Shown piece after piece: positions 1-61,174 of a stretch of 64,000 nucleotides of DNA. Under the pieces are notes generated by a model that made no database searches, had not been told where the DNA came from, and saw nothing but the letters and a program-made list of their open reading frames with translations. Within the stretch, counting starts at the first letter, position 1. Each line of letters starts with the position of its first letter. The translations under genes were made by a program, and so were the position numbers. The DNA is from Bilabrum cf. latius (lineage: Eukaryota): positions 806,001 to 870,000 of the forward strand of contig OZ237763.1 in NCBI GenBank assembly GCA_965178125.1, read 5' to 3'.

Positions 1-1545
1 CTGGTTCGCCGCAGCGATGCAATAGGTGCCAGCATGAGCAGCTCAAGCCAGGGCAGCGGGCAAGCCGAGAAGACAACGTTGAACTCGATATGGGTAGGGT
101 ACCGCCGCGGATTCGGAGTAGTGCGTGAAACGAGTCAGCGAAAATCACCTGGCGACGCCCTGCTCCAGGAGCCAGCGCCAGTCCTCGTCCAGCTGCGCAA
201 CTTCGTCTCCCTGGCGAGTCCCCACCTTGGGGTCCACGGGGCCGTGCCGGGGTGCCTGGGACGATTAGCGCACGCGGGCTACGGGGGACCCACCGTGCAG
301 CAGCTGCTAGTTGTGGACGACGCCGGAGAGAAGGAGAGGCAGCTGCAGGGGGAGTACACAGCTGCGAGGCCCAATGTGCTAGGCAAGGACAAGGACAAGG
401 GCAAGGGGAAGGGAAAGAGAATGAGCGAAGCATAGGGTGAACTGAGTAGGCTGCGATCTAGCGGTCGATTACTGGCGCAGATGGCGGTGCCAGGGGGCGT
501 GTTTGGCCGTGGATGGGGCTCCTTCAGGCGGCGGGTGCTGGTGGGGCACGAGGTGTGCGACTCGAGAGTGCCGCTGTGGTCCTCGACTGTCGCTGGGAGG
601 CCGCTGCAGCGGGGTATTGGTGGCAATCGCCATGGTAATGCGGTGGAGGGCGATGAGCCCAGCGAGGTGCATGGAATTACCTCTGCTGCTGGTGGCAGCG
701 GGGCTGTTGCGCCATCGTGGCAGCTGCAGCTGGTCAGAGCCCATGCGCTAGGAGTGCAAGCCGCTTTTTCAGCGCCGAGTGGGGGGCCGAGCAGCAGCCA
801 GTCCAGTGAGGCTCGCAGGGTTGGAACGAGGAAGCACAGGAACTCTGGCAGCAGCACCACTGCAGTCGAGCCGGCGGAGCTCCCGCCACGGTCTACATCC
901 CCAGGCCGTGCGGAATCCGCTGCGCTGCATGGGCCGATTGCAGCGGGGGAGCATGTCACAGGCACGTTCTGGGTCAGGCACGGGTCAGGTGCAGAGGCAG
1001 GCAGAGACGCCAAGGATACGGGGTCTGCTGCAGAGGGAGCACCCGACACGGAGTGGGGCATGGGTCAGGTAGCTGAGGCCCTGCTGTCTGGTTTGAAGCA
1101 CACTTTTGGGTACATCGCGAGCATTCGAGCGGACAGAGGCGCCGGCACGGGCGGACACAGTGGTGGTCGCAGCGGCAGCCCATCCGCCGGCGCCGCCCTG
1201 TCGCACGATCTCAAGGAGGCAGAGCGACTCGCACCTCCACCGGACAGGGCAGACGATGAGGGCCAGTCCATGGCCCTCGAGACGGCGGCTGCCTCTGGCC
1301 TGTGGGCCGCAGCCTAGGCTCACAGCGGGCCGCAGGGAGACACTGCCGTGGTGCTGCTGCGGGCCGATGGGGAGCCGTGCCTGGCGGGGACTCACGCGAG
1401 GACAGCCATGAAGTGCGAGCTGCTGGTTGGATTGGAGGCAGCCCGGCCGTGGCTGCCGCTCGAGTGCTGCCGCCGGGCAGTGAGATGCGATGGAGGGCTG
1501 CACATGCAGGACCTGCAAGGAGTAGCTGCACTGATGTTGCGATGA
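1..1545 (+). CDS. 3' part of a hypothetical protein (5'-truncated by the window; TAG read through)
   Basis: The frame is open from base 1. ORFs 34-435, 481-1317 and 1348-1545 share this frame and are separated only by TAG (433, 1315); it ends at TGA 1543-1545. No family recognised. Confidence 0.6.
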
Positions 1546-1704
1546 CGGGGCATCCCAGATGCGATGGAGGGCTGCACATGCAGGACCTGCAAGGAGTAGC
1601 TGCACTGATGTTGCGATGACGGGGCATCCCAGATGCGATGGAGGGCTGCACATGCAGGACCTGCGAGGAGTAGCTGCACTGATGTTGCGATGACGGGGCA
1701 TCCC
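1483..1704. repeat. 74-bp tandem repeat x3 spanning the stop codon of the first gene
   Basis: Near-identical units AGATGCGATGGAGGGCTGCAC...GGGGCATCCC start at 1483, 1557 and 1631. Confidence 0.95.
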
Positions 1705-1755
1705 AGCTCCAAGTTTGTCATTCGATGTCGGTTCGATTCATTTCAAGCAAGGGGT

Positions 1756-4700
1756 TTACTTCTTTTTCCCCTTCCCCTTCCCTTTCCCTTTCCCGCCAGC
1801 CCCACCCGCTGCACTCGTATCCGCCTGCAGCCCAGCATCCGCCCCTGGAGGCGCCTCCCCTGCCTGCAGATAGAAGATCCAGGGGGGCAGCCCCGCCCCC
1901 TCTCGCCCAGTAGCCCGAACCAACAGCTTACTGCTGGCCTCAGCCCGCCCCGCCCGCTGTGCCTCCTCGGCTCTCTCCGAGCAGCTCACCTCGATCCCCG
2001 AGGACTCCCTGGGCCCCAGCGAGAGGATGGCATCGTCCACGGCGAACAGGGGCGAGTCCAGCTCCAGAGAGAAGGACGCGTCCACAGAAAAGGGGGAGCG
2101 GAAAGGCACAGACACGGACCCCCCAGGCACCACGAAGAGCGGCCCCACCGGGCGGGGCGGCTCGCCGGTTCCCACCAGAGGCACCCGCACAGTCTCCCGG
2201 GGTACCTGTCCGCCGGACACCCGCAGCACCAGGGTCGCATGGGCCGGGCCGAGCCGAAAGGGGTAGAAAGACACGGGCACAGCGGCGGAGGCATCGCCCA
2301 GTGCGCCGACTGCCGCCCTGCCCTCTGGCACCGGCCTGGCCCCGAACTCGAGGGGCAGCTCCAGCGAGTCTCCGCCCTCGTCCCCGGCCCCCTCACCCAG
2401 CAAGAAGGCGTCTGCGTCGAGTCCTTCCACGCTGGCGAGCAACTTGAGCGAGCCAGAGGTGCCCGGGCCCACGTCTGGCCCCGCGGACCCCCGTATGTCC
2501 GCGGGGTGCAGGGCCCTGGCCCTGGCCCCCAGCGAGGCCTTGAGCTGGAGGGGTTTCTCCGAGGCAGGCACGGAGGCGAGCAGCTTGAGCACGTACCTGA
2601 AGCGCCCTAGCTGAGGGGATACAAGCACCATCTCAGTGTCCTGGGACTGCTCCCCGCCAGAGCCCGAGCTGGCCCCGTCCACGGCCGCGCCCTCAGCCCC
2701 GGCCCCGGCGGCAGCAGAGGCGCCCGCAGAGTCCGGCCGCAGGTGCAGTGGCGTGAACGTGACTCGGAATGGAATCTCGGCCTCGGAAGACGCAGCCCCA
2801 CCCGCTGCACCAGAGCCGGATACTCCCGCCCCCGCCCCCGCGCCGGCCAGCTGCTCGATCCTCACGAAGGGGTTCTCGCAGGTGACCTCGCTGAACTGCA
2901 CCTCCTCCTGGCCCTGGGCCTGCCCCATGCCCGCCAAAGGGTTGGGCACGGAGACGACCCTGGAGGCAGACTGCCGCAGCGCGGCACGCAGCCGCACCAC
3001 GCCCTGTGCCCCCGCCGGGCCGGTCCTGAGCAGCACCGGCTGTTCCACTACCTCGCCGCAGTCGTCGCCCGCCGTCTCGCAGACGAACCGCACCGAGAAG
3101 CCCAGCTCGCCCTCAAGGTGGTTCATCGCAGTCACCCGTACCTTGCGCACAGCCCCTGCCGACACTTCCACCGTGCGCGGGCAGTTGACAGTGGCAGTGG
3201 CAGGCAGGTCCTGCGGGCCCACCTGCACGCGGAACCTTCTCTGTCCCCTTGCCCAGTTGCTCAGAGGCACCATCACGGAGCACTGCGCCTTGGCCTGCGC
3301 CTCTGCCTCCAGTGCCGGCAGGGGCGCGGGCGGCCCGGCGGTGCCTCTCAGCGCCCTGGTCATGCCCCCCCCGTCCGGCAGCGCCACGAACAGCTCACCC
3401 TCGTGGAATGGAGGCCGGTGGGACGTGAGCGATCCCTCCACGGGGGGGAACAGGGAGGAGGAGGAGGAAGAGGCAGAGCCCTGGGCAGCAGCGGCGTCCT
3501 CCTTGCCCCTCCCCTTGCCCTTGGCTTTGCCTTTGCCTTTGTCTTTGCCCTTGCCGCCCTTGCCCTGGTCCTCCTGCTGCTCCTCCCCCTCTCCACCGGC
3601 AGGCACCGCCGTCTGGCTCAGGGGAGCGTACTCCACCTCAAGCTCGGGGACCTCCCCTGGCCGGGCCCTCACTTCGGCAGGTACCCTCCAGTGTGACGAG
3701 CTCACGGAGGGCCGGTACACCTGCGGCTCATCCGTCTCGTTCGCTGGCAGCGGAACCGTGAACTTGAACGGTTCGCCGCGCACGGATGCATTGCACTGCA
3801 GCACGTTCGCGTCGCTGGCGCCACCCTCCGCCTCGCCCGCTCCTCCCGCGGCTGCTCCACCAGCACCTCCCGCGGCAGGCCTGGGCACCGCGGTGGCCTG
3901 CAGCCGGATCCCCAACGGGTCGCAAGGAGTGCCGTCGGCCTCCTCAATCTGCACGTAACTCCCCGACTGCAGCTCCTCCTCGCCATCGGGGCCCAGCCCG
4001 CCCTCCCCCACAGGGGCTGCGCAGGTGAAGGCCAGCGGCTGCTCCTGACCCGGCCGCAGCGCCCCCTCCGGCGGAGAGCACGCAAACACACCGCCGAGAC
4101 CCTCCACGTCAACTCGGAATCGAATGGCCACGTCACCCCTGTTCCGCAGAGCCACCACCCGCCTCGCGGCAGACCCCCGCACCACCCGCCCGAAGCGCAC
4201 GTCCTCGTCAGTCACGTCCACCTCCACGCCCTCAGCACGGGCAGCCACCGTCAGGAGCGGCCTGCAGTCGCCCGAGGGCTCGCCCGCCTCAGCGCCGATG
4301 CCGCCGATAGACGACTGTGCCCCTGGCGAGGACGGCTGGCTGAAGCCTACTCCCATGCCTCTCCCTCCTTCGTCCTGGTCCTCGTCCTCGTCTCCGTCGT
4401 GGCCCAACACCCGGGCGAACAGGGGGGCAGAGAACGCACCCGCGCGCTGCTCGGGCCGGAAGTCGATCTGCACGTCCGCTGCCTGGCCCCTCCGCAGGGT
4501 GAGAAGCTCGGGCTCCCAGGCGACCCCCTGGGACCGCAAGCGGGGCGCCCCCCCGAGCGTGCCGTCCACCAGCCGGACCGACACTGTGGCCCGCCCGTGG
4601 TTGATCACCTGCACGCGGCGGCTGGCGCTGCCCCCGGCGCGCACTCCCGAGAACCGCACCCTCCGCTGGGAAGGATCCGCGAACTCGAGGCGCAGGGGCT

Positions 4701-7700
4701 CTGCAGAGGCCTCCAGCGGGATGGCGGGTCCTGCCGCGCGCCCGCCCACAGAGAGCAGGAGCCTGGCGCTGGCCGCCCCTGCCTCCCTGGGCACGTAAGA
4801 CACGGGCACCTCCACGATCTCCCCGGGACCCACCTCCACAGAGGAGAGGGGCAGCCGGAAGGGCAGGCCACCTCCTGGCAATCCTTCTGGCCCGCCCTCC
4901 GGCCCGGCGATGGCGAGGTCCACGGCCAGCGTGCGGTCCTCCTCCTCGCTGCCCAGCCGCAGCACCTGCGTGTGGCGCCTGGGGGCGGCGGACACCGACC
5001 GAGGCAGCACGCAGGTGCCCCAGTGCAGCGCCCGCGCGTGGGGCACCAGCCTGGGCACGCTTGTTCCCCCGGATAGAGGCACCATGTACGTGCTGCCCCC
5101 AGCCACCTCCAGCCGCAGCTGCAGGTCGGCAGCGTCCAGATCCACGGCCCCGGCCTCGGGCCCTTGGCCTCCGTGCACCGCCGGTGGGGGTGCAAACCTG
5201 ACCTTCACTCTAGCCGTCTCGCCCGCACCCACGGCGCCCCTGTCAGGCTCCACAGACACCGCCCCCAGGGCGAGGGACAGGATGCGCCCGATCGCCGCCC
5301 CGCTGAGACCCGATAGGCGGCCTCCTCCTCCCGACTGGCGGCCCCCACCTCCTCGCCCCCTCCGCTGAATGGTATCCAGCAGCTCCCGCGCGCCCCCCGG
5401 CGCCGCATCGAAGAGCACGACCTCCCCCCCGGGCCCCACCGTGGCCAGCCTGGCCTCGAAATGCAGAGACTGGGCCCCCTCGTTCCTCAGCTCCAGCTCC
5501 CTTGTTCCCTCGTCCCCGCCCTCCACCGCCCCCAGGCGCACATCCTCCGCCACCACGCCCCCCGTCGCGCTCTCGCCCAGGCGCCGGGCTGCCTCATGCC
5601 CCGCAGAAACGCCCAGGGCCGCCTGAGCAGCGCCCACGTCCACCGGCAGCAGCTCCGCATCGGGGTCTCCCTGCCCCGTGCCGCGCAGCACCACCCGCTC
5701 CTTGATCGCGAATGCGTCTCCCTTCACGTTAAGGTGCAGCGGGGTCACCCGCCGGCCCACCACGCACCGCAGCGTGGCGTTTGCCAGGCCGGCAGCCCTC
5801 GGCTGGAACCCCACGTCCACCTGCACGGACCCCCTCGCAGGGATGCTGCCCCGCCACGGGGACACGCTGATGCAACCGAACGGACCCACCCGCAGCACGG
5901 CCCCGCCCTGCTGCCCCTGTCCATGCCCCCCCTATCCTGCGGTAGCGGCAAGGCTCCTCGCTGCCCTTAGGCCCCCTCCCCCCGAGCCTCCCCCCGCCCC
6001 CTCCCCGCCCCCGGACTGACCCGGGGCCTCTATCCTGAAGGGCAGCGGCACGTCCTCGCCGTTGCGGATCTCCACGGTGCGTGACGAGTGCGCCCCTGCG
6101 AGCAGCCTGCCAAACCTGACGGAGGGCGGGAGAACAGCCACTGCTGGTTCCCTGGCGCGGCCCACCACCAGCACGGTGATCTCCAGCCGCTTCGAGGGCA
6201 CGGAAAACCGGAAGAACTACTCGCAGGCCTCCCCAATGGCATCGGGCTTAAAGGCGAACTGCAGCTCGATCTTCTGCCCCCCCGCCAGCTGGCCCCGCTG
6301 CGGGCCAGCCGACAGCGCCCCGGACCTCTGCCCCACCGGCTCAAGGGCGAACTGCCACCCCTCCGCGGATGGATTCAGCAGCTGGCAGACATGCCGCACT
6401 CCCGCCGCCCTGCCTATGCCCACGCTGTCCAAGACAAGCACCCGCGTGGACGCATCGATCGGAGTCCCGGGCAGCCCGTCCGCTCCCGGCAGCCCAGGAG
6501 GTCTCGAGGCCAGGTACGCGCTCGCCTGCGTGCTGTCCTGCGAGGGCAGCTCCAGGTGTGCCACTGGGCGCTGCCCCCTGCCCGCTGCCCGCACCACGCA
6601 TCCCGACGGCACGGCCGGGGCCACGGAGGGCAGCGATCCTGCGGGTGCGGGCAGCGAGGCAGCCCCGGGAGGCAGCCTGCCTGCCCCCAGAGCCAGCTGC
6701 AGATCAGCGGCCTCGTGGGCAGGGTACAGCGTCTGCACGCGGGGAGGGGCGCGGCTCCCGCCCTATTCATCTCCCTCTCCTTCGGACACTGTGCTCTTGG
6801 ACTCCTGCTCCCTTTTGCTCTCCTCCAGGCGGGAGGTCCCAGCCCCCGTGGACGGGGCCGCATCGGACGAGGCCAACGAGTCCCCTGCCCCAGCCCATGC
6901 CCCCGATCCTGACCCTAGTCCGGCATCAGCCCCGCCCACCTCCAGCCGCTGCAGGTCAATCTCGGCCACCACGTCGAACTCATAGTCGTCTGCCTCCAAG
7001 GGGGTGAAGCAAAGGGAGCCAGCAGAAGGCACCTCGGGGCCGGCCTTCGACTGCCCTCCTGCGCCTGCATCGTCCTCGTCCTCCCCCGACTTGCTCTCGG
7101 CTTTGCCTTTTCCCTTCCCTTTCCCCTTGTCCTTGCCCTTGTCCTTGCCTTTTGACTTGCCCTTATCGCCTGCCCCCGATGCATCCTCCTCGCCCTGCCG
7201 CTTGGGCTGCACCGCGGGCAGCAGCACGCCCACAGCGGGCCGGATCGCGAACGGGGACTGCGTCACGTCTGTCAGCTGCCGCGGCAGGGCGCCCGTCCGC
7301 CGCACCGTCTCCGCCGCTGTCCTCGCTCGCTGCCTTGACACGCCGGTGGGGATGTATCGGAATCGCACCGGCAGCGCCAGCCTGCCCCCCGAGGTCCCCT
7401 GCAGCGGTGCCACCCTAGTCTGGTACATGGGCGTGGGCCGGAAGACCGCGCGGGCCGGCCCCAGGCTCGGCTGAATGCGGTCCGCCTGCGCGCTGACGAG
7501 AAGCATGCGGGCCTGAGGCGCACTGGCTGCCTCCAACAGGGACCCCTCCTCCTCGGGCTACCCATCGCCCGCGCTCTCTCCCGCGGTACCGTTGGCCAGC
7601 ACCTCCCGCGGGTCGAAGGGTGCAGCCAACTGCACCGCGCCCTTCCCATCCCCGTCCTGCTGGGCCGCCAGCCACCTAGGCGCCCACAGCGGCTCGGGGC

Positions 7701-9328
7701 GCCCCTCCACCACCCGCAGCACCCCGCCCGATGAAGCGCCACTGCTCCTCGCCCTCCCCTCCTCCCACACACGCACCCTAGGCGGCACGCGGCAGCCGGT
7801 GCCTTCCTGTTCCTCAGCGGCAGCGGCGGCGCTCTTGGTCGCTGCATCCCTGGCCTGCTACTCCTCAGCGGCGGGGGCACCTCCCTCGGCGGCTGCCAGG
7901 GGCACCGCCCTCACGTTGGAGACGTCCGCGCTGCTCCACTGCACGCTGGGCTCATGCCAGGGGCCTGCCGGAGCCTCCGGACTGGCTGCTGCATCGCCGG
8001 CGCCTCCACTCGCAGACTTGACCTTGCCACCCTTGTCCTTGCCCTTCCCTTTCCCCTTATCCTTGCCCTTGCCGCCTTTGTCTTTCCCCTTGCCCCCTTT
8101 TTCCTTCCCCTTCCCCTTCCCCTTGTCCTTGCCCTTGCCTCCTGCGCCCTCCGCGCCCCCCTCACCGCCCCCCTCCTCATCCCCCCAACCAGATTGCGGC
8201 CCGTCGTCTCCCTCGGGCAGCACGCCCCCCGCGGGCTGACCCAGCCCGCCCACCGCCGCCCGCAGTGCCGCCTCCGCCGTCTCCTCCGAGGCCCCCTCGG
8301 CCGACCCCTCCTCACCAACGAAGGCCCGCACCAGGGCAGGGTGGTACGAGACGGGCACCCACACGAGTGGAAGCGGCCGACGCACCAGTCGCAAAGGATC
8401 CGCCACGCGAAGAACAAGCCGGACACGCCTGGAGGCACCCGCTGGCAGGTGGAACATGGCCGGGGTGGCGCGCACTGCACGGTGGGCGGGCCAAGCGCAC
8501 CGCATGGGGTAGCTGGCGGCATTGCGGACCACTACATCCGCCCGGGCTTCCACGCACGGCGGGCTGTTCCCCTCCGCGGCCAGCGATGCATCTGACAGCT
8601 CCGTCTCCCATTCCGCCCAGGTGCGTCGCCCCCCGTTGGGACCGCCCTCCTCGTCCTGCTCCGTCCCGCCGGCCGCAGTGGCAGCCGCAACCGATCTCCC
8701 ATCCGCGTCCCGGAGACCGTCGGGAGCGGCCTGCTGGCCCGCCCCCTGCGGTCCTGGGCCCAGCAGGACTGTGCCAAAGTCCAGCACGCCCTGGCTCGAG
8801 TCCTAGTCCTGGGCCTCGCTCCCTGCCTCGGTCCCAGTGTTAGCCCGAGCCCCCGCTGCACCTGCAGCAGCGGCGCACGCAGGCCGCGGCAAATCTTCCA
8901 GCCGCAGAGGTGGGGCCACTGCCCGCCCGCGCAGCACCACCCGATCGGACGCAAAGGGGTTGTGCGCCACGACGACTCGGAATCGCAAAGCTGTTCCCTG
9001 GAACGGCCCGACGCTGGTAGTGTCCTCGCCGCCGCCCTTGCCACCCTTGTCCTTGCCCTTGGCTTTCCCCTTGTCCTTGCCCTTTGCTTTCCCCTTGTCC
9101 TTGCCCTTTGCCCCGGACGCCCCGTCACCGCCTGCCTCCGCGTCGGCCCTGCTCCTGGCCCTCTGCAACCGCCCCTGCTCGGCCCAGAAGGCAGCCTCCT
9201 CCTCCGAGGGCGAGTAGGAGCACTGCACGCGGCGGCTCTCGCCCGGCTGCAGCGTCAGCGACTGCCCCGCGAGGGGAAACGCGAGCTGTGACGAGTGGAC
9301 CTGCGTCGATGGCCCGTACAGGGGAGGC

Positions 9329-9365
<37 letters not shown>

Positions 9366-10209
9366 TAGCCCCGCCCCCCTCACCCTCACTGCCCTCAGCC
9401 CCCTCATCGCCCTGCCTGTCGCCGCCACCCGGCGCACCAGCGCCTGCGCGGACACGCTCCAGGACGAAAGAAGCGGTGGCCGGGACATCTCCGTCGTTCC
9501 TGAGCTCCAGCTCGCGCGCCGCAGTGCGCTGCACCTCAAGACCCCCGAAGTCCACCAGCACCGCGCCCTCGGGATCCCTGCCGCCCAACCCACTCCGAGG
9601 GGCCAGCACGGACACCGTGGGCAGCGTGCCGTCTCCCTGGCACCTGAACTGCAGGGCCGCAGTCCCCGGGCTCGGGCCACCGCCCTGCACCAGCGCGCGC
9701 ACCCGGCAGCCGTAGGAGCGGACCGCGCGCGGGTGGAACGACACGGTGAAGTACCGGCTCTCGAACGGAGGCACTCGCAGCTCCTCACAGTCCAGTGTGA
9801 ACGCTTCCGCTGGCGTGGGAACTCCGTCCGCCGCGGCCTCACTGCCCGCCCCAGCGTCTCCGCCCGCGCCGTCGGGCGTCAGCTCCAGCCTGACGGAAGC
9901 CGGCACTTTGCCCGTGTTCGTGATCCTGACGCGCTCCTCCACGCCGCTGCTACTAACTGACGTGTAAATCACCTTTCCAAACGACAGCGTTCGCTCCCTT
10001 ACTCCAAACACGGCCCGCTGCTGCGCATCAGATCCCCCCCCACCGCTGGCCTGTCGAGCAGACTCAGAATCTGCAATCGATGGGACCACTGCTTGCTCCT
10101 CAAAAATTTGCTCCCAGTATGAGATGACCTTGGCCATACGGGCTGGCGTCGTCGGCAACTTCGACCCACCGCTCTTGTCTTGCCTCGGAGTGCCCGTCGT
10201 CGACGACAT
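1756..10209 (-). CDS. HYDIN: Hydin-like central-pair protein, C-terminal portion (~2,800 aa, repeated ASH/Ig-like domains)
   Basis: One frame from ATG 10209 to TAA 1756, broken only by TAG at 8803, 7858, 7558, 6763, 6217 and 5932. Hydin-like motifs include IFEEQAVV, LSFGKV..ITNTGKVPA, VPPFESRYFTVSFHP, QGDGTLPTV, FGRVVRGS..LRNRGDV and a terminal PWIFYLQ. Confidence 0.8.
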
Positions 10210-10385
10210 CCTCACCCAGCTCTCACAGAAATACTAAAGGGAATACCGGGAATTAGACGAAACCACCAGGTAATCAAATAGATCTTCAATCGAAAACCAA
10301 CAGAACGAGGCCACGCAACGCTGCAGATAGGGTAGATTTGCTATTGTTTCAGCTAGCCGTTTGCACACCGGGTTGCACTCGTCAC

Positions 10386-11223: not shown

Positions 11224-11434
11224 CAAACAAGGTCGGCACATCTGGGGCCCACGGCTTAGAAAGTGCAAAAAAGGTACTCCCACCGGGGCTCGATCCCGGG
11301 CTGGATCATTAGGAATGACCAGTGCTTCCACTACACTATAGGAGCTTGTTGTCGGCAGGAGGCGAATTTGACAATACAAATATCTTCCTGTTTTAGGGAT
11401 AGTTTCAAGACCTTTTTTCGAATGACACTTGCCA

Positions 11435-13396: not shown

Positions 13397-13543
13397 CTTG
13401 GTGAGTACGGGTCTGCAGCGCCGCGCGTTGCATTGCCAGCAGGCATGTCGTGGACGTTGGTGCACCCGTTTTCCGGAACGGTCTCCCAGAGGGTTGCATG
13501 GACTATATGAATGTAAAATCCCATAACAGACTGCCTTGTCGTC

Positions 13544-31884: not shown

Positions 31885-31940
31885 ACAAAAGCAACAAATG
31901 CAGGTGTGCATCATGATCCTATCAATTTGCAGCATTGTAC

Positions 31941-43286: not shown

Positions 43287-43406
43287 TTTCAGTGTCTTGT
43301 GTTTTGACTGTAAAGAATGCGCATGCTATTGATGGTCGGTTTAGAAAATCCAGGTACAAGGTTGCTGTTCAGGCGCCATTGCGTTGGACAAGGTGATCAG
43401 ATCAGG

Positions 43407-48709: not shown

Positions 48710-48972
48710 CAGCACAGCTCTTGGCCAGTGCAACAACCAATCAATTCATTACAACATGACGAAACTACTTTGCTGCTTTGCTACGTTCCTGGCGCTGCCT
48801 GCACGAAGTATTGCTTTTTGATGCAAAGCACACTGTACAAATGCTTCATTGCCGTTTGGATGTTCAAGCGCACTTCAGATCTCTCGCACATCCACCGGCG
48901 AGCTTAACCACAATTGCTAAGGAAGGAAGCAATTGATCCTTTTATTTACCATTGCAGTGCCTAGTACGGATC

Positions 48973-51900
48973 ATGGCAAGCGCAGGATCGTCTGAGTCTC
49001 CGAAGCCGCGTGCTCGGTTGATGATCAGCCAGCTCGTTTTGGAAAACTTCAAGTCATACGGCGGCAAGAAAGTTATCGGGCCTTTTCACAAACGTTTTTC
49101 GTCAATTGTAGGCCCAAATGGCAGCGGAAAGTCGAACGTGATTGACGCTATGCTGTTCGTCTTCGGCAAGCGTGCCAAGAAGCTTCGCCTGAAGAAAGTC
49201 AGCGAGCTCATCCACCGATCAGCCAAATACCCTGACCTCGACTTTGCTAGAGTATCTGTACACTTTCAGGACATCATTGACACTGGCGATGGGGACGAGG
49301 ACTACCAAGTCGTGGAGGGTTCGGAGATCATTGTCTCCCGCACAGCTCTGCGCAACAACACCAGCAAGTACAGGGTGGATGGCAAGGAAATGAAGTTCAA
49401 GGAAGTAGGAGCGCTCCTACGCCACAGGGGCATCGACTTGGACCACAACCGTTTTCTGATTCTGCAGGGAGAGGTCGAGCAGATTTCGATGATGCGGCCC
49501 AAGGCTCCGGCTGCCAAGCGCGAGACGGGGCCTGCAAGTGGAGCCGGCGGCGAGGACGGCGAGGAGGGTGGCACCAAGAAGGCCAAAGAGCGCCAGTCGA
49601 ATTCTGAAGACGGCCTGCTCGAGTTCCTGGAGGACATCATCGGCTCGAACCAGTTCGTGGAGCCCATCGAGGAGGCCCAGGGGGCCCTCGAGGAGGCGCA
49701 GCAGGCCAGGGCCGCCACCATCAACCGGGTGAAGACAGCCCAAAACGAGGCCGAGTCCCTGAAAGATGCCAAGGAAGAGGCTGAGGCGCTGCTGCTGAAG
49801 CAGAAGGAGACCCTGCGCGGCAAGGCGCACATGTACCAGGTCATGCTGGCAGAGCACTCGGTGCAGCGAGAGGCCCTCGACGAGCGGTCCGCGGCCTTCG
49901 AGACGCGCGCCAAGGAGGAGGCAGAGCGCATGGAGCGGGCCCAGGGCCAGAACAAGGAGCTTGCCAAGGAGGAGAAGGCCGCCGCCAAGGCCCTGGCTGC
50001 AGTGGATGCCCGACTGCAAGCGTCTCGCGGGCAGTTCGGGGCCTTCGAAAAGAAGGACATCCAGCTGCGGGAGGACCTCAAGGCGGCCAAGTCAGCTGCC
50101 AAGAAGACCCAGAGCGCCATCAAGCGCGAGGCTAAGAAGGCGGAGGAGTCTGAGAAGCGGGTGGTCGAGCTGGAGGCCAGCATCCCTGGCCTGGAGGAGC
50201 AGGTGCATGCCTCGGAGGAGAGCAAGGCCGAGGCAGATGCAGCGCTGGAGGAGCTGCACGAGAAATTGCAGGGCCGAACGGCCGGACTGAGGGAGGAGCT
50301 GAGTGCGGCAGAAGAGGCGCTGGCTCCCCTGGCAGGACGCAAGGCAGAGGCAGCTGCAGCGCTGGAAACAGCTCGCGCCGAGCTGCAGGTGGCCCGGCAG
50401 GAGAGCGAGAGTGCACGGGAGGCGCTGCGAAAGCTCCAGACCCAGGCCGCCCAGGCGGAGCAGGCTGCTTCCAATGCTGCCCGAGGCATAGAGGGCGCTC
50501 GTAGCACGATCGCACGGTGCGAGGGTCGGCTGCCTGCGGCGCAACGGGAGCTGGAGGGGCTCCGCGAGGAGGAGAAGGAGGCCATGGGACAGGTGCGGGA
50601 GCTGCGGGCCCAGGTGGAAGAGGGGCGCCATGCCCTCTCCCAGGGCTCGCGGTCCTCCGAGCTGGTACAGAGGCTCATGCAAGCCACTCGCAAGGGCGGC
50701 GAACTTGCCGGGGCAGGGCTGCACGGTCGGCTCGGCGACCTCGGTGACGTGCCTGCTGACGTCGACGTCGCCGTGTCTACCGCTGCCCCTGCGCTCAACT
50801 ACCTGGTCGTGGATAGCACGGAGGGTGGGCAGCGCTGCATCGAGTTTCTGCGGAAGCACAACCTGGGGAGGGCGCGATTCGTGGTGCTTGACCGCATCAG
50901 ATGGGCCGAGAAGCAGATGGCAGCGCAGGTGCAGGTGCCAGACGGGACCAGCCGCCTATTTGACCTGGTGCGGCCCGCAAAGCCGCAGTTTGCACCAGCC
51001 TTCTTCTTTGCCATGCGAAACACGCTGGTTGCATCCGACATGGACAGTGCAATCAAGGTGGCATACCAGGGAGGCAAGCCGGTGTGGCGGGTGGTGACCC
51101 AGCAGGGACAGCTCATTGAGTCTTCGGGAGCCATGTCTGGCGGCGGTAAGGCTGTGCGCAAGGGGGGCATGCGATTGCGCAGTGCGGCGGCCGGGCAGGC
51201 AGCCGCTTCTCGTGCGAGTAGTGCCGCCGAGAGTGGCGAGATGGTCACGGCAGAGGACGTGGCTCGCCTCGGGAGGTCCCTCGCAGCGGCGGAGGCTCGT
51301 GTGGGCTCTTGCCGGCACCGCATCTCGACGCTGGAGGCGGAGGTGAAGGGGCTTGAGGAAGCCCTGAGCCAGGCACAGCTGGACCTGCAAAAGCACGAGA
51401 GCGCAGCAGAGAGCCTTACGGCACAGCTGGGTGATGTCAGGGCGCGACTGGCCACTGCAGAGAAAGCAGCCGAGCAGGAGGCCAAGTCTGCATCCAAGGG
51501 AAAGGCAGCCGATGCAATCCGAGCGCTTGAGAGCGCTGCTGATGCTGCCAAGCGCGATCTTGACGAAGCGACACAGGCTGCATCTGCAGCAGAGTCCCGA
51601 GTGGCTGCCCTGCGTGAGCAAGTAATCTCGGCCGGCGGCGCGGCCCTGAAGGAGGCGTAGAAGGCGTCCAAAGAAGCGAAGCAGGCCCTCGCTCAGGCTG
51701 CAAAGGCACTAACCAAGGCCAAGACGGACATCAAGACCTAGACGCGGGCTTGCACGAAGGCCAAGACTGCGGCGCAGTAGGCCGAGGCTGAGGTGGAGGC
51801 CCAGAAGCAGAAGCAGGTATCGCTAGAGCAGGAGCTGCGGGACATGGAGGAAAAGGCAGCGGATGTCATGGAATCCGTGAGCAGCGCAGAAAGTGACCGC

Positions 51901-53133
51901 AAGGAGGCAGTATCAGCCCTTGAGAAGTGCAGGGCCGAGCGGGAGGCTGTTGAGAAGGAGCTGGGTAGCGTCAAATCCGTGGTGGTAGAGGTGGAGAGTG
52001 GCCTGAAGGAGATCCGCCAGGCCCTCAAGGTTGCCGTGCAGAAGTCGGAGCAGTGGACTGCTCTGCTAGAGAGGTCCAGGTCGGAGTACTCGGAGACTGT
52101 GGACACTTTGATGCAGTTCGCCGACGAAGAAGACACCGCGGAAGACGGGTCCGCCGGGCCTACTGTGCCTGCCTCGGGAGCCGGTGCGTCCGAGAGCAAG
52201 GAGATGGAGGACGGGGATGGCGACGGTTCTGCCGCAGGTGCGTCGGTAGGCCCGTCCACTGCCGCATCTGATCGCGCGGCTGTCGATCGAGAGCTGCCGG
52301 CTCTGTCCCAGGACGAGATGGCGCGCATGCGGGAGGAGGGCCGCACGGCGGAGCGGCTTCAGATGGAGGTGACCGCCTTAGAGGAGGAGATGCAGCGCAT
52401 GAAGGATGGCGTGAACATGAAGGCGATCGAGGAATACTACAGCAAGAGGAGGGACTACCTCGCTAAGGTGGCCGAGATGGATGCTGCCTCGGCTGTGGAG
52501 GCCGAGAAGCGGACTGCCTTCGAGGGCCTCCGCAAGGAGAGGCTCGACATGTTCATGGCGGGCTTCGCTACCATCAGCCTCAAACTCAAGGAGATGTACC
52601 GCATGATCACTCTCGGTGGGGATGCAGAGCTGGAGCTCGTGGATTCGCTTGATCCGTTCAACGAAGGCATCGTGTTCAGCGTGCGACCCCCGAAGAAGAG
52701 CTGGAAGCAGATCGCGAATCTGAGCGGAGGCGAGAAGACCCTCTCCTCGTTGGCTCTGATCTTCGCCCTCCACCACTACAAGCCCACCCCCCTCTACGTC
52801 ATGGACGAAATTGACGCTGCGCTGGACTTCCGGAACGTGAGTATCGTTGCCAACTACATCAAGGAGCGCACGTAGGACGCCCAGTTCATCGTGATCAGCC
52901 TGAGAAACAACATGTTCGAGCTGGCTGACCGGCTGGTCGGCATCTACAAGACGTTCGACGTGACGAAGAGCGTGACGATCGCCCCCAAGGAATTCGCAGG
53001 CCCAGCAGGGAAGGCAGTCGACGCTGCTTCGTCAAGCTCGGGTGCGGCAGCGACCGGTGGTCCGGAAAAGGGTCGCGGCGTGGCAGCTGCCGGGTAGGTC
53101 GCGTTGGGCGATCGAACAAATGAGGGAGTGTGA
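48973..53133 (+). CDS. SMC4: Condensin subunit SMC4, ~1,390 aa
   Basis: ENFKSYGG..GPFHKRFSSIVGPNGSGKSNVIDAMLFVFG, NRFLILQGEVEQI, hinge GLHGRLGDLG, LSGGEKTLSSLAL, YVMDEIDAALDFRNVSIVANYIKERT*DAQFIVISLRNNMFELA. TAGs at 51658, 51739, 51778, 52873 and 53095; TGA 53131. Confidence 0.97.
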
Positions 53134-53230
53134 GACTATGCCTGTGCTTCAATATGAAATAACTTTCAGATGAAATACTCCCGAAACCAAGTCAATTCGA
53201 TGACACCGCACCGAATATCCAGATTCCTGG

Positions 53231-56200
53231 TCAGCTGGACATAGCTGCTTCGGATGCCCACACAACGCCCTCTGACTCTGCTGCAATGACATCCTTTCCG
53301 GCCACTTCAGCGTGCAACTACTGCGCCTTCAGCAAAGAGGCTGCTGAATCGGCCGACCTGGACTCGTCCAGGTCCTGGGGCAGCCTGACGGTGGCCCGCA
53401 TGTGGGGAGGCAGCGGCGGCAACACGCACTACTATGGTAGTCGGTCAGCGAGCGCTGCGGCTGCGTCACCGAGCGGCGGGTTGAGTACTCCAGTGCACGC
53501 CCGGATTAAGTGAGTCAGCGCAAGCCTCTCTTCGTGGCTGCACAGAGTACTTACAAGCTCGCTTACCTGCCTAACGGCTTTGGGCACCTTGTCCTAAGGG
53601 AATCTCGCAAGGATGCTGGCGGCCGGCCTGCCTACCTAACATTCTAAATCTGAGGTTGTGCCCGCGGTTTTACCACCAGCAGCTTCACTGCTCCCAATAA
53701 CACCGGAAGCTCCAGCCCTGGCATGCATTACGACATGCCTTGGCAGGGAAATGCCAGACCCGCGAGCAAGAGCAACCACAAGGGCAACTGCAAGCGCATC
53801 ACTGGCTAGGCTGACGGCCGCTGCCGACTGCTGGTCCTCCGATACATCACTGGCCTAGGCCAGCGCAAGTGCCGCCCGAAGCAGCTAGCGCCTCATTCGC
53901 CTCATAGTTTGCAAGTGCCTTGGTGCTGATGCTAGCCGGCGTCTGCGGCGCTCTCGCGCTTTGCTTGGGTCACCGTGGGGCTGCTGCGGAGCCGTGGGGG
54001 CGTCAAATGGCGGTGCTGCTTGCAGGCAGGTCAAATAGTCATCGCCAGGCTCATCGAGGGATTCTTCGTTGGATGCCAGTCGAGAGACAGACACGCGCTT
54101 CAGGGCATCGAGGACTTCTGCTGGGGGAACTGAGGCACCTCGAACATCCTCAGCATTCACACTTGCGCCTAGTCTTGGGTCTAGGCGCCAAATGAGGTGA
54201 CCAGCTCGACCACCCCCTGTCATATCAACTTTGCAGCCACTGGGAGGACCACCCGGCCCGAAGAACAGATGCGGGGCCCACAGCGACACCTCCACTATAG
54301 GAAGTTGACAGATCTTGTCAATGAATCGTGCAGCCTGCGCACAGACTGGAAGGGCCCACGACACAGTGGACTTGTCTTTGGAGCCCTTCTTGCTTGCGCC
54401 GCTCGGGAGTTCGGCTGGAGGCTCAATCCTATGCAGCATTCGCCAAGGCAGAGTCCTCCAGTTGGTTATTGGCTCTGACTTAGAGGCACCAGCTGCCGGG
54501 CCGGCGTTCGCCGCGGGTCTTGTGCAAGGACCTCCGCGGAAACATGGAGGGCACAGCAGCAGCTCTGTGTACCAACAGTAGCACGCTGAGGTGGTAGCGG
54601 TCCCAAACATTCCCGTGGTTATGCCAACCCCGCAACTGGCGCACCGGCGCCCTTGCCACTTGTTCAGCGCTGGCAAATTCGGAGGCATCGCCGGCCTCCG
54701 CTCAAGCACGCTCTTCAGGGACAATGTCGCTTCTCGAATGCAGCCCTGCAACTGCCCGGGCGATTCGCTATCCTCAAGTCTCCGCGGGAAGTGACGCAAA
54801 GGGTGTAACGTTAAGGCTGCCAAGTCTCGGGGGTGGCTTCCTGATGTGCCTCCCCAGTCACCGTGCTTTTGGGCAGTGTTCTCTATCACTTCCAGCTCAT
54901 TGCATGACTGCACAGCCACAGCCAGCTGACAAGCCTCGGAAGAGACAACAGAAGAACCATCATGCCCATGTGTTTTCCTCTACGATGGTGCAGACAATCC
55001 CAGGAACTAAAGCACGAGACTAGACATGTCTTCAGCCGAAGATGATCTGTCTGACATGCTACCTGCGACACCGGAGCGCTGCGACTTATCCGCAGCATGT
55101 GCCGCTCTCGCTACTATTTCAGCAGCATGCGCTGCGTCAATCACACCGCGTGAACCAGCCCGAAGCTGCTATGGAGACATCTCGAGGTACAAAATGGCGC
55201 GCGCACGAGCCTCTAGCGTGCTTTCAGCCTGGTACTTCTCCTTCTACCAGGCGGCACTAACCCAGGCACTGCCGTCAGCACTGCTCGAGTGATCACCACC
55301 TAATCGACACAGTGCCCTTGCTCGCGCCAGTCCGTACGCCTTCGCCGCCTCGAAGCACAGCTTCTCTGCTCGGGCGGCAAACTGCGGCACAGCTACAGCA
55401 AGTTTCTCCGTCAGCGCGACGCCATCACGGCCAGGTGCCGGCGGCGGCACTCGTTCCAAAATTAGTGTTGCCAGCCTCTCTTTCATTCGAGACCGTAAGC
55501 TAGAATCTTCGGGTTCTGCCCATGGTTCCAGTAGAGAGCGTACTTTAGCTGGTGGTGGCGGTGGCTCTGGCGAAGGCGGGAGATCTGAGCCGGCACCAGA
55601 GCCACTAGAAGGCTGACCCACAACCACACGCGACGGAGCTTTGAAAGGTTCATCAGAATCCCTGCCGTCTCTCTTGCTCTCATCGCGAAGGCCTGTGGTA
55701 TGCAGGCTAGCGGGACTCTGGCCGATGCCACCCTCTGCTGCAGCGGCGCTACTGTCTGTCTACACCTGACCCAAACTTCCTTCGAGACGGTTTGCGCCTG
55801 CTTGAGATGGCACGGCTTCACCACTACGAATAGTCTGCGATGCGGATAGTGCTGGTGCGGGAACATCCCGCCCGGGCAGTGTCGCTGTTGCAACTGGTGG
55901 CTTATCAGTTTTGCTAGCCGGTGTGGTGCTTGGCACTTTAGAGCGTTTAGCGGCGCTTGCTCCTTTACGCCGTCTGGCAGCAGACCCACCACCTTTCTTC
56001 AGTGATGCAACAGCCGCTTTTCTTTTCTCTTCGTCCAACTGGGCCTCTGCAGCGGCTGCAGCCTCCGCATCCTTGGCTGCTTTCGAGAGTGCCTCGGTTC
56101 TGGCATCTTGCGCCGCTTTTGCAGCCCGCTCCAGCTCTACCATCCTTCGCTTCATCCTCTCATTCTCCTCCTTTGCCCGCATCAGCTCCTGCTATGCTTG

Positions 56201-57835
56201 TGACGCCTTCACTTGCAGCGAGCTCGCTTGCTGGGCCACTGTGGAAGCCTCCATATCTCGCTGCGCGAGCCTTGACTCTAGCTCCTGAATTCGCTTCTCT
56301 GCCTCTCTTGCAGCTGCCGACTTACCCCCCGAAAGCCTTCCAGGAAGCCTTTTCTGCTTAACCTTTGATTTTTCCTTGGGTTTCTTGGTCGCTGTTGGAC
56401 TTGCCCCCTCCCCGCTGCCGGGGGTGCTCTTCGCGGCGGAGTCAGCTTCGGGCGCAGCCGGCGCGGTCGTGATGCCGCCTGCAGATCGATGGACTGCACG
56501 ACCGTTGCTTGCTTGTGCTTCGCTGCCACCATCAAACTGGAGTGTACTGCCAGGTTTCGAAGCTGTTTCGCGTAAATCGGTACGGCTGGCGGCTGAACCC
56601 TGCTGCGCCACGACTGGCGATGCCTGGCTCTATCCAAGCGAGGCAGGCCAGTCACTTGTCAATTTCACACCTCTCTCTGCACTCTTCACGGGACTGATAC
56701 CAACACCTGTAGCGAGTGCCCCGGCCTGGCCCGTGGTTGCCGAGCCCGAGGGTTGGTGCTCCAAAGAAGACTGATCCTGTTTCGATTCCAACGGATCTAC
56801 GGATGAGCCGCCGGTAGAAGGCTCGAGACGTTCGGGGGCTGCTGCAGGGCTTGAAACGACCGGCTTGCCACTGAATGCGATGTCGCCAGTCCCTACCTGT
56901 TTTGCGTCATCAGACTTCGAGTCTCCTGCTTGCGCACGACCTGGCTGTGCCACTCTGGACTCAACCTCACCATTGTCTCCATTGCGAGCGAGGACAAGAA
57001 CTTCGGTTTCACGCTAGTCGTGCCCCCTGGCGGGTCCATCGCCGCTATCCTCCCGCCTTTCGCCGCCGTCGAGCTCTGCTGCAGCGTCCTCGTCCTCGTC
57101 CTCGTCCATTGGAACCAGAGGCCTCTCGCTTGCCCGGCGTAACCAAGCCATCCACTCCTTGCCCATCTCTTCTGTCGGCGCCCTAAACTAAAGTGATCGC
57201 GGCTTGCTTATAACTGGGTCACTTGTGAGCTCGGGATCCCCGCGGAGCTGGCAGCTGACTGTGAACACAGCGTTGAACGGCACGCCTCGAGCCCCGGCAC
57301 CGGAGGCTGCCCCCTTTGCTTCCCCTGACTCGCCAGCAGTCACCTCCAGCTCTGATATCTTGCATCCAAGCAGGTCAACTTCACCAAGTGGTGGATCACT
57401 CTTCGATTTGCACCAGTACAGGCGACATCCACGCACTCGGCAGAAGCGGCGCTTCCAGCTGCCGCTGCCTGGAGAGGCACGTTTGTCCAGCCACCCGTCT
57501 CCGCTGACACCGGATCGGCTTGCTCCCCGCAACAAGGTCAGCCAAGACTGTAGATGCTACTCTGATGGCGCCTGAAACGCAAGTCGTCTGCCGAATGCAT
57601 CGGCACAAGCAAGCATGTGATCACGATTGTGCACTGCCTTGCTCACCGCATCCACTATTCCACCGCACACATTGACGTAACCTTTGATTGCCCCGAGCTT
57701 GCTGGGTGATTTGGGATCTTTTTCCGCGTAGTGTAGCACGCCATGTCGAAACAAGCATTGCCGCTGCTTCCACGATCGAATCCAGCTACCTTCTTTCTCG
57801 ATCTCGCCCCGAAACTCGAAAGGACACGATATCAT
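53231..57835 (-). CDS. Tandem-PH protein with a Rubicon-homology (zf-RING_9/DUF4206-like) domain; PLEKHM/DEF8-like
   Basis: PH1 GEIEKEGSWIRSWKQRQC, PH2 GWLDKR..SWKRRFC, a coiled coil, then QGRRCASC..CYCWYTELLLCPPC..LPWRMLH..PVCAQAARFI. One frame with more than ten TAGs, including a tandem TAGTAG at 53429-53434; TGA 53231. Confidence 0.7.
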
Positions 57836-57999
57836 TGTATAAGTTAAGTCAAGAGCTCGCTCAACTGGTCATCAACCACGCTCTGGCTCTTCAATTGAGG
57901 GAGTTGCGGGCCGTCATATCTCGTCTAAGTGCTCGCAACTATCAGAGGCAGCCGTTTCGAACGATCCTGACGCTCAGAGAGTGCCCAGCTGGGGTCATC

Positions 58000-60900
58000 A
58001 TGGAGGTTCACATGTCATCTAGAGATTTGTTTCGCGTTGGACCTGTAGGCTACCGGGGTACGCTGCAGGTCCTTCCGAAAGGTAAAAAATCGAAAGTGAG
58101 TTATTTGCCTGCAAATGTATAGTCCTTCAGAGAGCTGTGTTCAACATTTTTGCAGATTCAAATTAAGTCCATATATCTTGCAGCCAAAAGTGGTCATTGG
58201 TGATGATTCAGGGTCAGTTCATTGCATAGAAGTCGACAAAGGAGTTGCAAAAGTGAGCGAGAGCAGAACCATTCGCACTGAACCACGCTTTTAGTAAGTA
58301 TTTCGTTGCGGTGGTTGACTTACCATTTTACGGCATGTTTTGTCCTCTCGTTCACAGAGAGCCTTCAAGACTGATGCAAGCTCAAAGCCGGTCTCCTCGG
58401 TGACACTCGGTGGGGCCCCGACAAAGAAAGACAGAGTCTTCTACTCCACCTCTCAAACCATCACTGGGGTATCGAAGAAAGGAAAAGAGTTTTTCCGTTT
58501 CGATACGACACTCTCGGAGACAATAACTTCATCGTTCTCTGAAGAGACGAGGCTGTGGCTAGCGGCATCCACGGACTACGGTCTGTTCGACAACGGAACA
58601 GAAATGGAGTCTTACGCCGCACCAGATGCTATCCAAGACCTTGCAGTCGCAAATGTGACAAGAGACACGGAACCTGACGCAGTCCTTGCTTGCAAAGACG
58701 GGGCCGTAAGAGTGATCGCGGCGGGGTCGTCCGTCCTCGAGTACCGCCAGGGCAGCGGAACCGTGAGCGCGGGCTCCTCGGCAGCTGGTGCCGCAGCAGC
58801 CGCGGCATCTATCGGTGGTGGCGGCAGTGCAAGCGCTGCTGCTGCTGGGGCTCGGTCGGCCGGCGGTGTATCGGGCGCCCGAAGCGTTCACTACTACCAC
58901 CCTACTCTGCTGCGCGGAGAGTCTGCCTCGCTGCCCGCCTCTTCCGCTGCAGCCAAGGAGATGGCCAGCTCTTTGCCTGCCGGAAGCACCATCCCTGCCC
59001 CTCGAGCCGGACGCGGTCACCTGCCTCCGCCCCTGAGTCCGAGTCGCGCGAGGCATTTCCTGGTGGGCTCCGGGGCGGGGAGCGTGGCTCTGCTGCTTGC
59101 AGCCAGCGATGCAGTGCAGCCGCGGTGGACGCTGATGCCTTCTCGCGGGAGGGCGGGAGGTGGCACCGTGAACGCGATCACCTCGCTGGATGTGACTGGG
59201 GACGGCAGTCTGGACGTGGTGGTGGGCAGGGACGACGGGAGCGTGGATGTGCTGGGCGCGGAGGCAGGCCCACACGACCCCGCGGTGGTGTTCTCGCACC
59301 AGGTCGGGGACGCAGTGCAGAGCCTGCAAGCAGCTGCGGTACCCTCACCCGGTGACGGCGAGGTGCTGGCCGTGTCATTCTCGGGCAAGCTGGTGTCGCT
59401 GACCACTGAGTCGCTGTCAGCTGCGGCGGAGGGGGACAGCTACGGGCGCAGCAAGGAGGTGGTGGAGCGGGAGGCCAGAGTAGTGGCGCTCCGGTCCGAG
59501 ATGAGTGCCTTGGAGAAGCAGGTGGAGAAGCAGCGATAGAGCATGTTGGATGCTTGGAAGAGCAGCGGGTTCTCCACGCCGGCCCTGGAGGCCATCGAGC
59601 AGGCGGCGGGGGCGGCGGGGGGTACGGGTGCGGGTGCGGGTGGGGGTGTCGCGAATGCAGGTGTGGTGGGCCAGGCCGCGGGACTAATGGCGCTTGCAGA
59701 GCCAGTCACTGCCGAGTGCCGATTGGAGGTGGATGAGGCAACTGCCAGCTACAGGATCGCGGTTGAATCTGCCTCGCTGGTAGAGAGCGTATCGTTGCTC
59801 AGCCCGGTGCCTCTGGAGATTCTCAAGACGGATCACAGCGCCAATGCCATCGTGTCCAAGACACAGCAGGAGGCGGCAAGGGGGGCCCAGGCAGCCCCGG
59901 CTAGCGGTCCGGAGGAGGCCAAGCCGGACCCACATGAGGATGCGTACGGCCCGGCGGGTTGCGACAAGTGGTCCTCTGTTCACACATTCCGATGCCAGGA
60001 ACTCTCGCACAGGCTAGAACTGAGGGCGAGGGCCAGGGAGGGTCAGACAGGCGACGTTGAGGTGGTGGTCATCGCAGAACCTGGGGCGGCCGGGCGGCAG
60101 GCAGCTGCGGTCGAGACTGTCCGCATCCGTCCGCTGTCACTCCACTGCAGGTGCAGCGACAGCGCATTCGATGACGCAGTGCAAGCAGGCGCGAGCGCAC
60201 CTGCAGGAGACGACCCCTCGCAGTCATGGCTCGCGGAAGCGGGGGCCAAGGCGCAAGCAGCCGCTGCCTCGCATGACTCGCAGGGGGCTCTGGTCGTTCG
60301 CGGGGAGTTCTCGCTTGGAAGGGCTCACGACTGGATCGAGCAGCTGCTTCCAGGTGTGCCCACACGCGCCGATACTGAGTCCGCCGCAGCTCGCTACGCG
60401 GAGCACGCGGCCACAGAGCGAGGCGTGCATGCCGGAGCCTCTGCGTCGGAAGTTGGTAAGCTGATGCCGCTGTCCGCGACGACTGGTGGCGCCGCAGATT
60501 CAGATGGAGCCTCAAGCGTTGAGGCTTCTGCAGCAAGTGGCCGGGGAGGAGGGCCGTCCTCTCGAGCAGTTCTCGTGTTCAGGAACTCGTTGGTGGGAAC
60601 GCTGCTGCGCGCTGACTACTGCCGCGGTGAGATGGTGCTGCGGTCGTGCAACGCATCGTCCTTGGCGATCGCGAGGGATTGGCTGCTCCAGCGCGCAGCA
60701 GCAGACAAGCTGAGCCTACAGGTGGACTGGCACATGCCTACTGCGTCTCTCAGGGCGGCTTGGGGCATGCTACACCCTCGGCTTCGATACGCCGCGTCGC
60801 TTTCAAAGCGAGCTGACCTGGCTGATGCTGTCAAGGAAGTAGCATTGTAGGAGGACGGCGACAGACCATGGTTGTCGCAGGAGCTTAAAGACGTACTGCA

Positions 60901-61174
60901 GCACGGTAGCAGGTACAGGCGTGAGCTAGAGTCGCAACCCAACAAGCTTGAGGCACTGCAGTGTGTGCTGGAGGACCTCTTCATGCATCACCACAAGGCT
61001 CTCGGCGGTGACGTGTCAGCCCACGTTGAGGAACTGATGGCAGCCGCCAAAGAGGCCTACGAGTTCAAGTCGGAGGATGCTGCGGTCCAAGTTGGGTTCT
61101 CGGCTAGAGCCGACATGGGCAAAGTGGCACATGACTAGATGCTTGCTCTGCTAGAGCAATCTGGGGGTGACTGA
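58000..61174 (+). CDS. BBS7: Bardet-Biedl syndrome 7 protein (BBSome subunit)
   Basis: Exons 58000-58095, 58184-58252 and 58358-61174. KVVIGDDSG, ITGVSKKGKEFFRFDTTLSETI, DVVVGRDDGSVDV, TFRCQE..RLELR..EGQTGD, IRPLSLHCR and GEFSL..AHDWI. TAGs at 59537, 60848 and 61136; TGA 61172. Confidence 0.9.

Follow-up and report, generated by a model that had tools for sequence, protein, structure and literature searches.

In-frame TAG codons and their probable decoding as glutamine in nuclear DNA of a Cafeteria-related stramenopile

This report describes the use of the codon TAG in a stretch of 64,000 nucleotides of nuclear DNA (contig OZ237763.1, positions 806,001 to 870,000 of the forward strand), referred to below as the window. 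All positions are those of the window. Its G+C content lies between 0.57 and 0.72 in steps of 4 kb, and long reading frames are packed densely on both strands. These frames emerge only when TAG is read as a sense codon, as compared with a reading in which TAG is a stop. The comparisons presented here point to UAG as a codon for glutamine in this nucleus.

Reading frames of the window and their in-frame TAG codons

Frames were read from stop to stop with TAG taken as sense, and 16 long frames were kept for counting. Six of them hold the genes on which the following sections draw most. A kinesin-14-like protein, whose motor is C-terminal and which also has a WW domain (21473-25273, plus strand; Pfam Kinesin, 2.1e-91 over residues 833-1218) contains 16 TAG codons and ends in TGA. 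The ISWI chromatin remodeller (31941-36251, minus strand; Pfam SNF2-rel_dom, 7.4e-99, together with SLIDE and HAND) contains seven and ends in TAA. An ABC-class ATPase of the MRB1590-like type (43407-45700, minus strand; Pfam ABC_ATPase, 3e-118) starts with the ATG at 45700, ends in TGA and has two coding TAG codons, at 44379-44381 and 43896-43898. The 3' part of the gene-bearing region is made up of the condensin subunit SMC4 (48937-53133, plus strand; Pfam SMC_N, 4.3e-75, and SMC_hinge) with five TAG, a PH-domain protein (53231-57868, minus strand; Pfam PH, 1.2e-18) with 17, and the BBSome subunit BBS7 (58319-61174, plus strand; Pfam Beta-prop_BBS7, 2e-49) with three, each of which ends in TGA.

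Counted from the first ATG, the 16 frames comprise 17,629 codons with 94 TAG, no TAA and no TGA. The absence of the last two follows from the cutting of the frames at those codons; of more weight is that the frames remain free of TGA and TAA over lengths of 750 to 2,900 codons, whereas TGA is found 242 and 326 times, and TAA 29 and 44 times, when this DNA is read in its two other phases. TAG occurs after the first ATG in 14 of the 16 frames, the exceptions being the uroporphyrinogen decarboxylase gene and the frame at 29710-31884. The terminator is TGA in 13 frames and TAA in the other three; TAG terminates no frame. A preliminary description of this DNA had reported TAG in 14 of 17 genes, about 80 such codons and no gene ending in TAG; the recount comes close to the first two figures and bears out the third. 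Counts from the first ATG stand for approximate gene models, since in ISWI the frame's first ATG falls in the 98-nt intron. Near their 5' ends, stop-to-stop frames also include some noncoding TAG codons, such as that at residue 19 of the ATPase frame, which is intronic. With TAG included among the glutamine codons, the 16 frames contain 94 TAG, 616 CAG and 106 CAA, and TAG makes up 94 of 816 (approximately 12%).

Conserved domains extend across TAG codons. In the kinesin, TAG stands at residue 975 of the open reading frame, within the motor domain (833-1218), and in ISWI at residue 343, within the SNF2 domain (258-540). In the ABC-class ATPase, the TAG that follows RAEDGR is residue 432 and lies within the P-loop domain (301-568). 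SMC4 has TAG at residues 908, 935, 948 and 1313 of its SMC_N match (29-1339), and its head, which lies inside the same match, reads IKERT-TAG-DAQFIVISLR. All four cases for which TAG had been described inside the fold are thus situated within Pfam domains.

TAG sites in independent assemblies and in a syntenic relative

The stretch 43400-53133 is present in runs of several studies. Four sequencing runs, X5, X7, X8 and X10, were aligned to positions 33134-53133; of these, X5 and X7 belong to two studies other than that of the window. These two runs contain gene-sized contigs, filed under other organism labels, that have no differences from the window. Of the 35 coding TAG sites of the aligned region, 22 lie inside such zero-difference pieces of X5 and seven inside those of X7, the remaining sites not being covered by the pieces listed for these runs. 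All five TAG codons of SMC4 are contained in one X5 contig with zero differences. In the ATPase gene, an X5 contig shows no difference over 43351-45552 and continues with a joint to 45678.

Two introns were recognized from these alignments. The ISWI intron (36158-36255, minus strand) has 98 nt with the termini GTGAGT..CAG, and in both X5 and X7 position 36157 is joined directly to 36256. The ATPase intron (45554-45678, minus strand) has 125 nt with the termini GTGAG..CAG and is skipped in X5; with it removed, the ATG at 45700, in a first exon of 22 nt, joins the long frame in phase. Both introns are located within the first 150 nt of the gene, the remainder of each gene being intron-free in the aligned contigs. 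The ATPase intron holds the TAG of frame residue 19, and neither intron removes any TAG counted as coding. In X8 and X10, which are DNA-like and diverged, the stretch of the ISWI intron is kept, apart from a 1-base deletion at 36220. Among the best-supported differences between these two runs and the window, none falls on a TAG site. Because X5 and X7 skip GT..AG stretches that X8 and X10 keep in ISWI, the TAG-bearing contigs look like spliced mRNA. From the two intron-less joints and the gene-sized pieces we infer that X5 and X7 are cDNA assemblies, in which case mature mRNAs would carry UAG.

A scan of metagenomes with SMC4 yielded two loci, L001 and L002, the first of which is identical to the second in their overlap. 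L002 is 15.5 kb long and has a G+C content of 0.54, lower than that of the window. Its positions 1423-14025 correspond to 48937-61174 of the window, with SMC4, the PH-domain protein and BBS7 in the same order and with protein identities of 76%, 48% and 72%, respectively. The three L002 genes contain 15, 16 and 10 in-frame TAG codons in this order, and all three end in TGA. Since this relative also has in-frame TAG, the reassignment predates its split from the lineage of the window.

In the codon alignment of the two loci, TAG is common to both at four positions and faces a sense codon at 55 sites. The partner at these 55 sites is glutamine in 19 cases, glutamate in five and alanine in five, while glutamine makes up only 3.4% of the aligned residues. 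The glutamine partners number 18 of 34 at sites with a flank identity of at least 0.5 and 14 of 20 at a flank identity of at least 0.75. Genuine glutamine codons are paired with glutamine in 108 of 253 cases (43%), near the 35% glutamine share at TAG sites. Under substitution frequencies taken from the same alignments, the log-likelihood of the meaning of UAG is -134.0 for glutamine, -179.2 for lysine and -183.6 for histidine. TAG is exchanged with both CAG and CAA, and the TAG of the SMC4 head is CAA in L002. The three shared genes have 177 glutamine codons in the window, 25 of them TAG, and 170 in L002, 41 of them TAG; CAA rises from 29 to 58. The use of TAG thus tracks base composition, which fits a settled reassignment shaped by composition.

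Meaning of UAG and alternative explanations

UAG is very probably a glutamine codon in this nucleus, as judged from the sequence comparisons. In addition to the codon alignment with L002, glutamine is the most enriched residue (3.6-fold) at the 16 usable TAG columns of 120 SMC4 homologues of about 40% identity, and single SMC4 columns have glutamine in 104 of 120 and in 67 of 120 homologues. Two public proteins that are 97% identical to the ATPase of the window, P0001 and P0369, have glutamine at both of its TAG sites. Three further ATPase records, P0366, P0367 and P0368, are fragments of 123-132 residues on 1.4-kb contigs that stop within the P-loop domain; they stop exactly where the window has glutamine, which suggests that genes were called under the standard code in those records. 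The proposal of the preliminary description, namely a sense meaning for UAG with glutamine as the amino acid, agrees with the L002 codons, the enrichment in SMC4 and the residues of the 97% identical ATPases.

Several observations weigh against the glutamine assignment. Its chief basis is a single relative lineage, complemented by enrichment statistics. Many TAG codons occupy variable positions, at which distant homologues have serine, arginine, alanine, lysine or glutamate. Among 114 ISWI homologues glutamine is the commonest residue at no TAG column, the nearest approaches being 14 of 114 and 31 of 114, and the residues found there are alanine, lysine, glutamine, glutamate or leucine. The TAG column of the SMC4 head is lysine in 80 of 120 distant homologues, and the ATPase columns are serine, arginine or alanine. 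Because the TAG codons stand mostly at variable positions, single-column evidence from distant homologues is weak, and among these comparisons only the pooled SMC4 enrichment is informative. The glutamine residues of P0001 and P0369 would be uninformative if the gene caller had used a table with TAG as glutamine; this is unlikely, because their cluster mates P0366-P0368 stop within the domain at positions where the window has glutamine. A tRNA with a CUA anticodon is present neither in the window nor in L001 or L002, the only tRNA found being tRNA-Arg(CCT), and no eRF1 gene lies in the window. Finally, no run over this stretch is recorded as RNA; X5 carries the label 'RNA? (probably DNA)', and the RNA status of X5-X7 is a guess.

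The columns from distant homologues, in which lysine, glutamate, serine or alanine is frequent, also speak for a sense codon with another meaning (lysine, glutamate, leucine, serine or tyrosine), as in other UAG-only reassignments, and the partner is a residue other than glutamine at 36 of the 55 sites at which TAG faces a sense codon. Such a meaning is nevertheless highly improbable: glutamine is the commonest partner at every flank threshold and leads lysine by about 45 log-likelihood units, its share among the partners matches that of true glutamine codons, and the codons exchanged with TAG are CAG and CAA, of which CAG is one transition away. The chance that the TAG codons are artefacts of assembly or sequencing, or that C-to-U or U-to-C editing, tiny introns or pseudogene status keep them out of translation, is practically negligible, and this explanation is already largely refuted. 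Nothing positive favors it beyond the guessed RNA status of X5 and X7. Against it stand the identical TAG-bearing contigs in runs of two other studies, the presence of TAG in contigs that lack the two introns, the sparing of every coding TAG by both introns, frames without TGA or TAA over thousands of codons, and the relative at 76% SMC4 identity, in which four TAG codons coincide with those of the window and many more stand elsewhere. The preliminary description had considered CAG in place of TAG, editing and splicing as possible sources of error; the independent runs have TAG at these sites, and the spliced, cDNA-like contigs keep it. The TAG codons are not an assembly error, nor are they edited or spliced out.

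A dual role of UAG, as glutamine inside genes and as a stop at some gene ends according to context, is unlikely, no sign of it being seen in the 19 genes covered. Context-dependent stop and sense codons occur in Condylostoma, and in the case of UAA in Blastocrithidia. The sample of gene ends is small (16 genes in the window and three in L002), and since gene ends were set at the first TGA or TAA, a terminal TAG would be read through by construction. However, TGA and TAA are the sole terminators seen in the window genes, the three L002 genes all end in TGA, and no gene of either set requires TAG as its terminator. In SMC4, BBS7 and the PH-domain protein, TAG codons situated 11 to 29 codons ahead of the gene end are succeeded by residues conserved in L002, and the TGA of SMC4 stands at the same aligned position in both loci. 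As judged from where X5 contigs end, the 3' untranslated regions beyond TGA are short, that of the ATPase gene, for instance, having 56 nt. TAG is followed by G in 41 cases, A in 22, C in 19 and T in 12, much as after any codon, and no context signal around TAG was seen in this distribution. UAA does not occur as a sense codon in the 17,629 codons, and the CFAP65-like and ISWI genes end in TAA.

With UAG read as an ordinary glutamine codon, UGA and UAA remain the terminators. By analogy with other codes in which UAG or UAR has become glutamine, as treated in PMC11687900 and PMC5304391, decoding would involve a tRNA-Gln that reads UAG, either through a CUA anticodon, one substitution away from CUG, or by near-cognate pairing. 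In addition, eRF1 would no longer recognize UAG.

Remaining features, relationships and implications

The other frames of the window differ widely in how far a product can be named. The first (1-1545, plus strand; two TAG, ending in TGA) runs off the 5' end of the window and has no assigned product. It is followed by a CFAP65/hydin-like flagellar Ig-repeat protein of 2,906 codons (1756-10476, minus strand; Pfam Ig_CFAP65_4th, 1.7e-27, and ASH, 7.4e-19), which ends in TAA and has eight TAG codons, six of them downstream of the first ATG; several low-complexity inserts of the KGKGKDKGK type separate its Ig domains. A tRNA-Arg(CCT) was identified at 11273-11345 on the minus strand (ARAGORN; Rfam RF00005, 50.6 bits), and no rRNA gene was found in the window with Rfam. 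A frame with a weak fucosyltransferase-like match (11426-13396, plus strand) has four TAG, and a low-complexity protein frame without assigned product (13544-17308, minus strand) has two; both end in TGA. Two neighboring frames at 17710-18771 and 18768-19688 (minus strand), with four TAG each, have no Pfam match and odd translations rich in serine and cysteine; they may not be genes and were omitted from all TAG counts. Uroporphyrinogen decarboxylase (20051-21388, minus strand; Pfam URO-D, 7.9e-107) lacks TAG and ends in TGA.

Downstream of the kinesin gene, a protein frame without assigned product (25401-29879, minus strand; eight TAG, ending in TGA) overlaps the frame at 29710-31884 on the plus strand, which is free of TAG and includes a long (GA)n-type stretch that translates as poly-(Gly-Ala). 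A serine-rich frame (37122-38300, plus strand), a candidate gene only, has four TAG, three of them after the first ATG, and ends in TGA, as does the gene of a calpain-domain protein with five TAG (38628-43286, plus strand; Pfam Peptidase_C2, 6.2e-23). Between the ATPase and SMC4 genes lies a repeat protein without assigned product (46028-48745, minus strand; 14 TAG, ending in TGA). At 47570-47824 (minus strand) it contains six tandem repeats of 17 residues (VQAAADAPPSRPGDGA-TAG) with one TAG per repeat; here TAG has been copied together with the repeat unit.

The window appears to represent the end of a nuclear chromosome with subtelomeric repeats. These consist of a 43-bp unit in 6.7 copies (61227-61512), (TAGGGT)6 (61552-61587), a 339-bp unit in four copies (61724-63081), (TTAGGG)47 (63083-63364) and a 155-bp unit in 3.7 copies (63425-64000), which reaches the end of the window. 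Since (TTAGGG)47 is followed by a further repeat of 155 bp, the telomere-type array does not form the end of the window and may be interstitial, or the record may run on past the chromosome end. A frame at 61688-63370 with 45 apparent TAG codons was rejected as a gene, as it consists of the 339-bp tandem repeat followed by (TTAGGG)47, and was left uncounted.

The best named matches of the window proteins are stramenopiles throughout. ISWI has matches at 67-69% identity, and the top matches to SMC4 are all at about 43%. Placement was based on two quick single-gene trees, of SMC4 and of the ABC-class ATPase. In the ATPase tree (LG+C20), the window and its 97% identical relative are sister to a group that holds Cafeteria roenbergensis; this clade of five rows has a Shimodaira-Hasegawa-like approximate likelihood-ratio test (SH-aLRT) support of 99 and is nested in a stramenopile clade (86). 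In the SMC4 tree (LG+G4), the window and L002 group with the cluster of C. roenbergensis and C. burkhardae (SH-aLRT 98). The clade containing Cafeteria then joins Thecamonas (97), with composition warnings, which makes the deeper placement unreliable. Of the placement by SMC4 that had been envisaged earlier, the grouping with the Cafeteria cluster thus stands and the deeper position does not. Identity to Cafeteria is approximately 42% in SMC4 and 52% in the ATPase. The organism appears from these trees to be a Cafeteria-related stramenopile, without membership in the Bicosoecida being implied, and its genes and composition describe a GC-rich, intron-poor and flagellated stramenopile whose nearest named relative would be Cafeteria (Bicosoecida). 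Sequence nearly identical to that of the window occurs in runs X1-X15 under at least three organism labels and also in protist or algae metagenomes; matches with shares under 0.2 are only partly aligned. As a lead only, this occurrence would fit a small bacterivore carried along in cultures of other organisms.

The codon table proposed here is identical to translation table 15 of the National Center for Biotechnology Information, the Blepharisma nuclear code, in which UAG likewise means glutamine and UAA and UGA are stops; the comparison with known reassignments suggested in the preliminary description leads to an existing table. The host of table 15 is a ciliate, whereas the present organism is a heterotrophic stramenopile. 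In codes of the table 6 type, UAA and UAG both mean glutamine; these are found in many ciliates, Ulvophyceae, Hexamita, Streblomastix and Amoeboaphelidium. They likewise involve the capture of stops for glutamine, presumably by mutation of a tRNA-Gln anticodon. In contrast to them, TAA is not a sense codon here, as it occurs nowhere in frame and ends three of the 16 genes.

In the passages of PMC11687900 on UAG-only changes, UAG alone is described as glutamine in Iotanema spirale (Fornicata), Protocruzia tuzeti and two lineages of phyllopharyngean ciliates; the uncoupling of UAA and UAG is called unusual and confined to few lineages, and no stramenopile is named in that discussion. These organisms resemble the present one in having UAG as glutamine with UAA kept as a stop, and differ from it in that the change described here would have an independent origin in the Stramenopiles, affects GC-rich DNA and is common to a metagenome relative of lower G+C content.

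Cafeteria is a GC-rich, intron-poor bacterivorous flagellate, and C. roenbergensis and C. burkhardae are grouped with the window lineage by both genes. Their full-length proteins in public records were called under the standard code, which suggests that TAG has probably not been reassigned there. No report of a nuclear reassignment of UAG in stramenopiles or bicosoecids was found in the full-text literature, subscription journals and supplements lying outside that search, in agreement with the earlier remark that no such code was known in the lineage this DNA resembles. The only match for Bicosoecida and UAG was an article on Cafileria that deals with its morphology and its mitochondrial genome, and a catalogue paper on giant viruses mentions alternative codes, none of them relevant to this lineage. 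What is described here is a code already known, in a major lineage that is new for it, and common to a clade that includes environmental relatives.

On balance we lean towards the view that UAG alone has become a glutamine codon throughout a clade of heterotrophic stramenopiles related to Cafeteria, and that this is the first change of the nuclear code reported from the Stramenopiles. The clade would comprise the organism of the window, strains diverged from it by 5-7% (X8 and X10) and a lineage diverged by about 24% in the SMC4 protein. Since the reassignment is found in DNA of 54-72% G+C, stop-codon loss under AT pressure cannot be its driver. If this view is true, public gene callers break the proteins of the clade at every TAG, so that the clade goes unrecognized in protein databases; no full-length SMC4 of the clade was present among public proteins of 761-2,424 residues. 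As calling under the standard code truncates these proteins, annotation of this genome and of related metagenome bins needs a table with TAG as glutamine.

Stop codons have seldom been reassigned in nuclear genomes, and every separate origin serves as a natural experiment on changes in a code supposed to be frozen. A flagellate that is free-living and can apparently be cultured would provide a tractable system of high G+C content, with relatives at about 6% and 24% divergence. The lineage could allow tRNA-Gln and eRF1 to be compared before and after the change, and with them the codon-capture and ambiguous-intermediate models.

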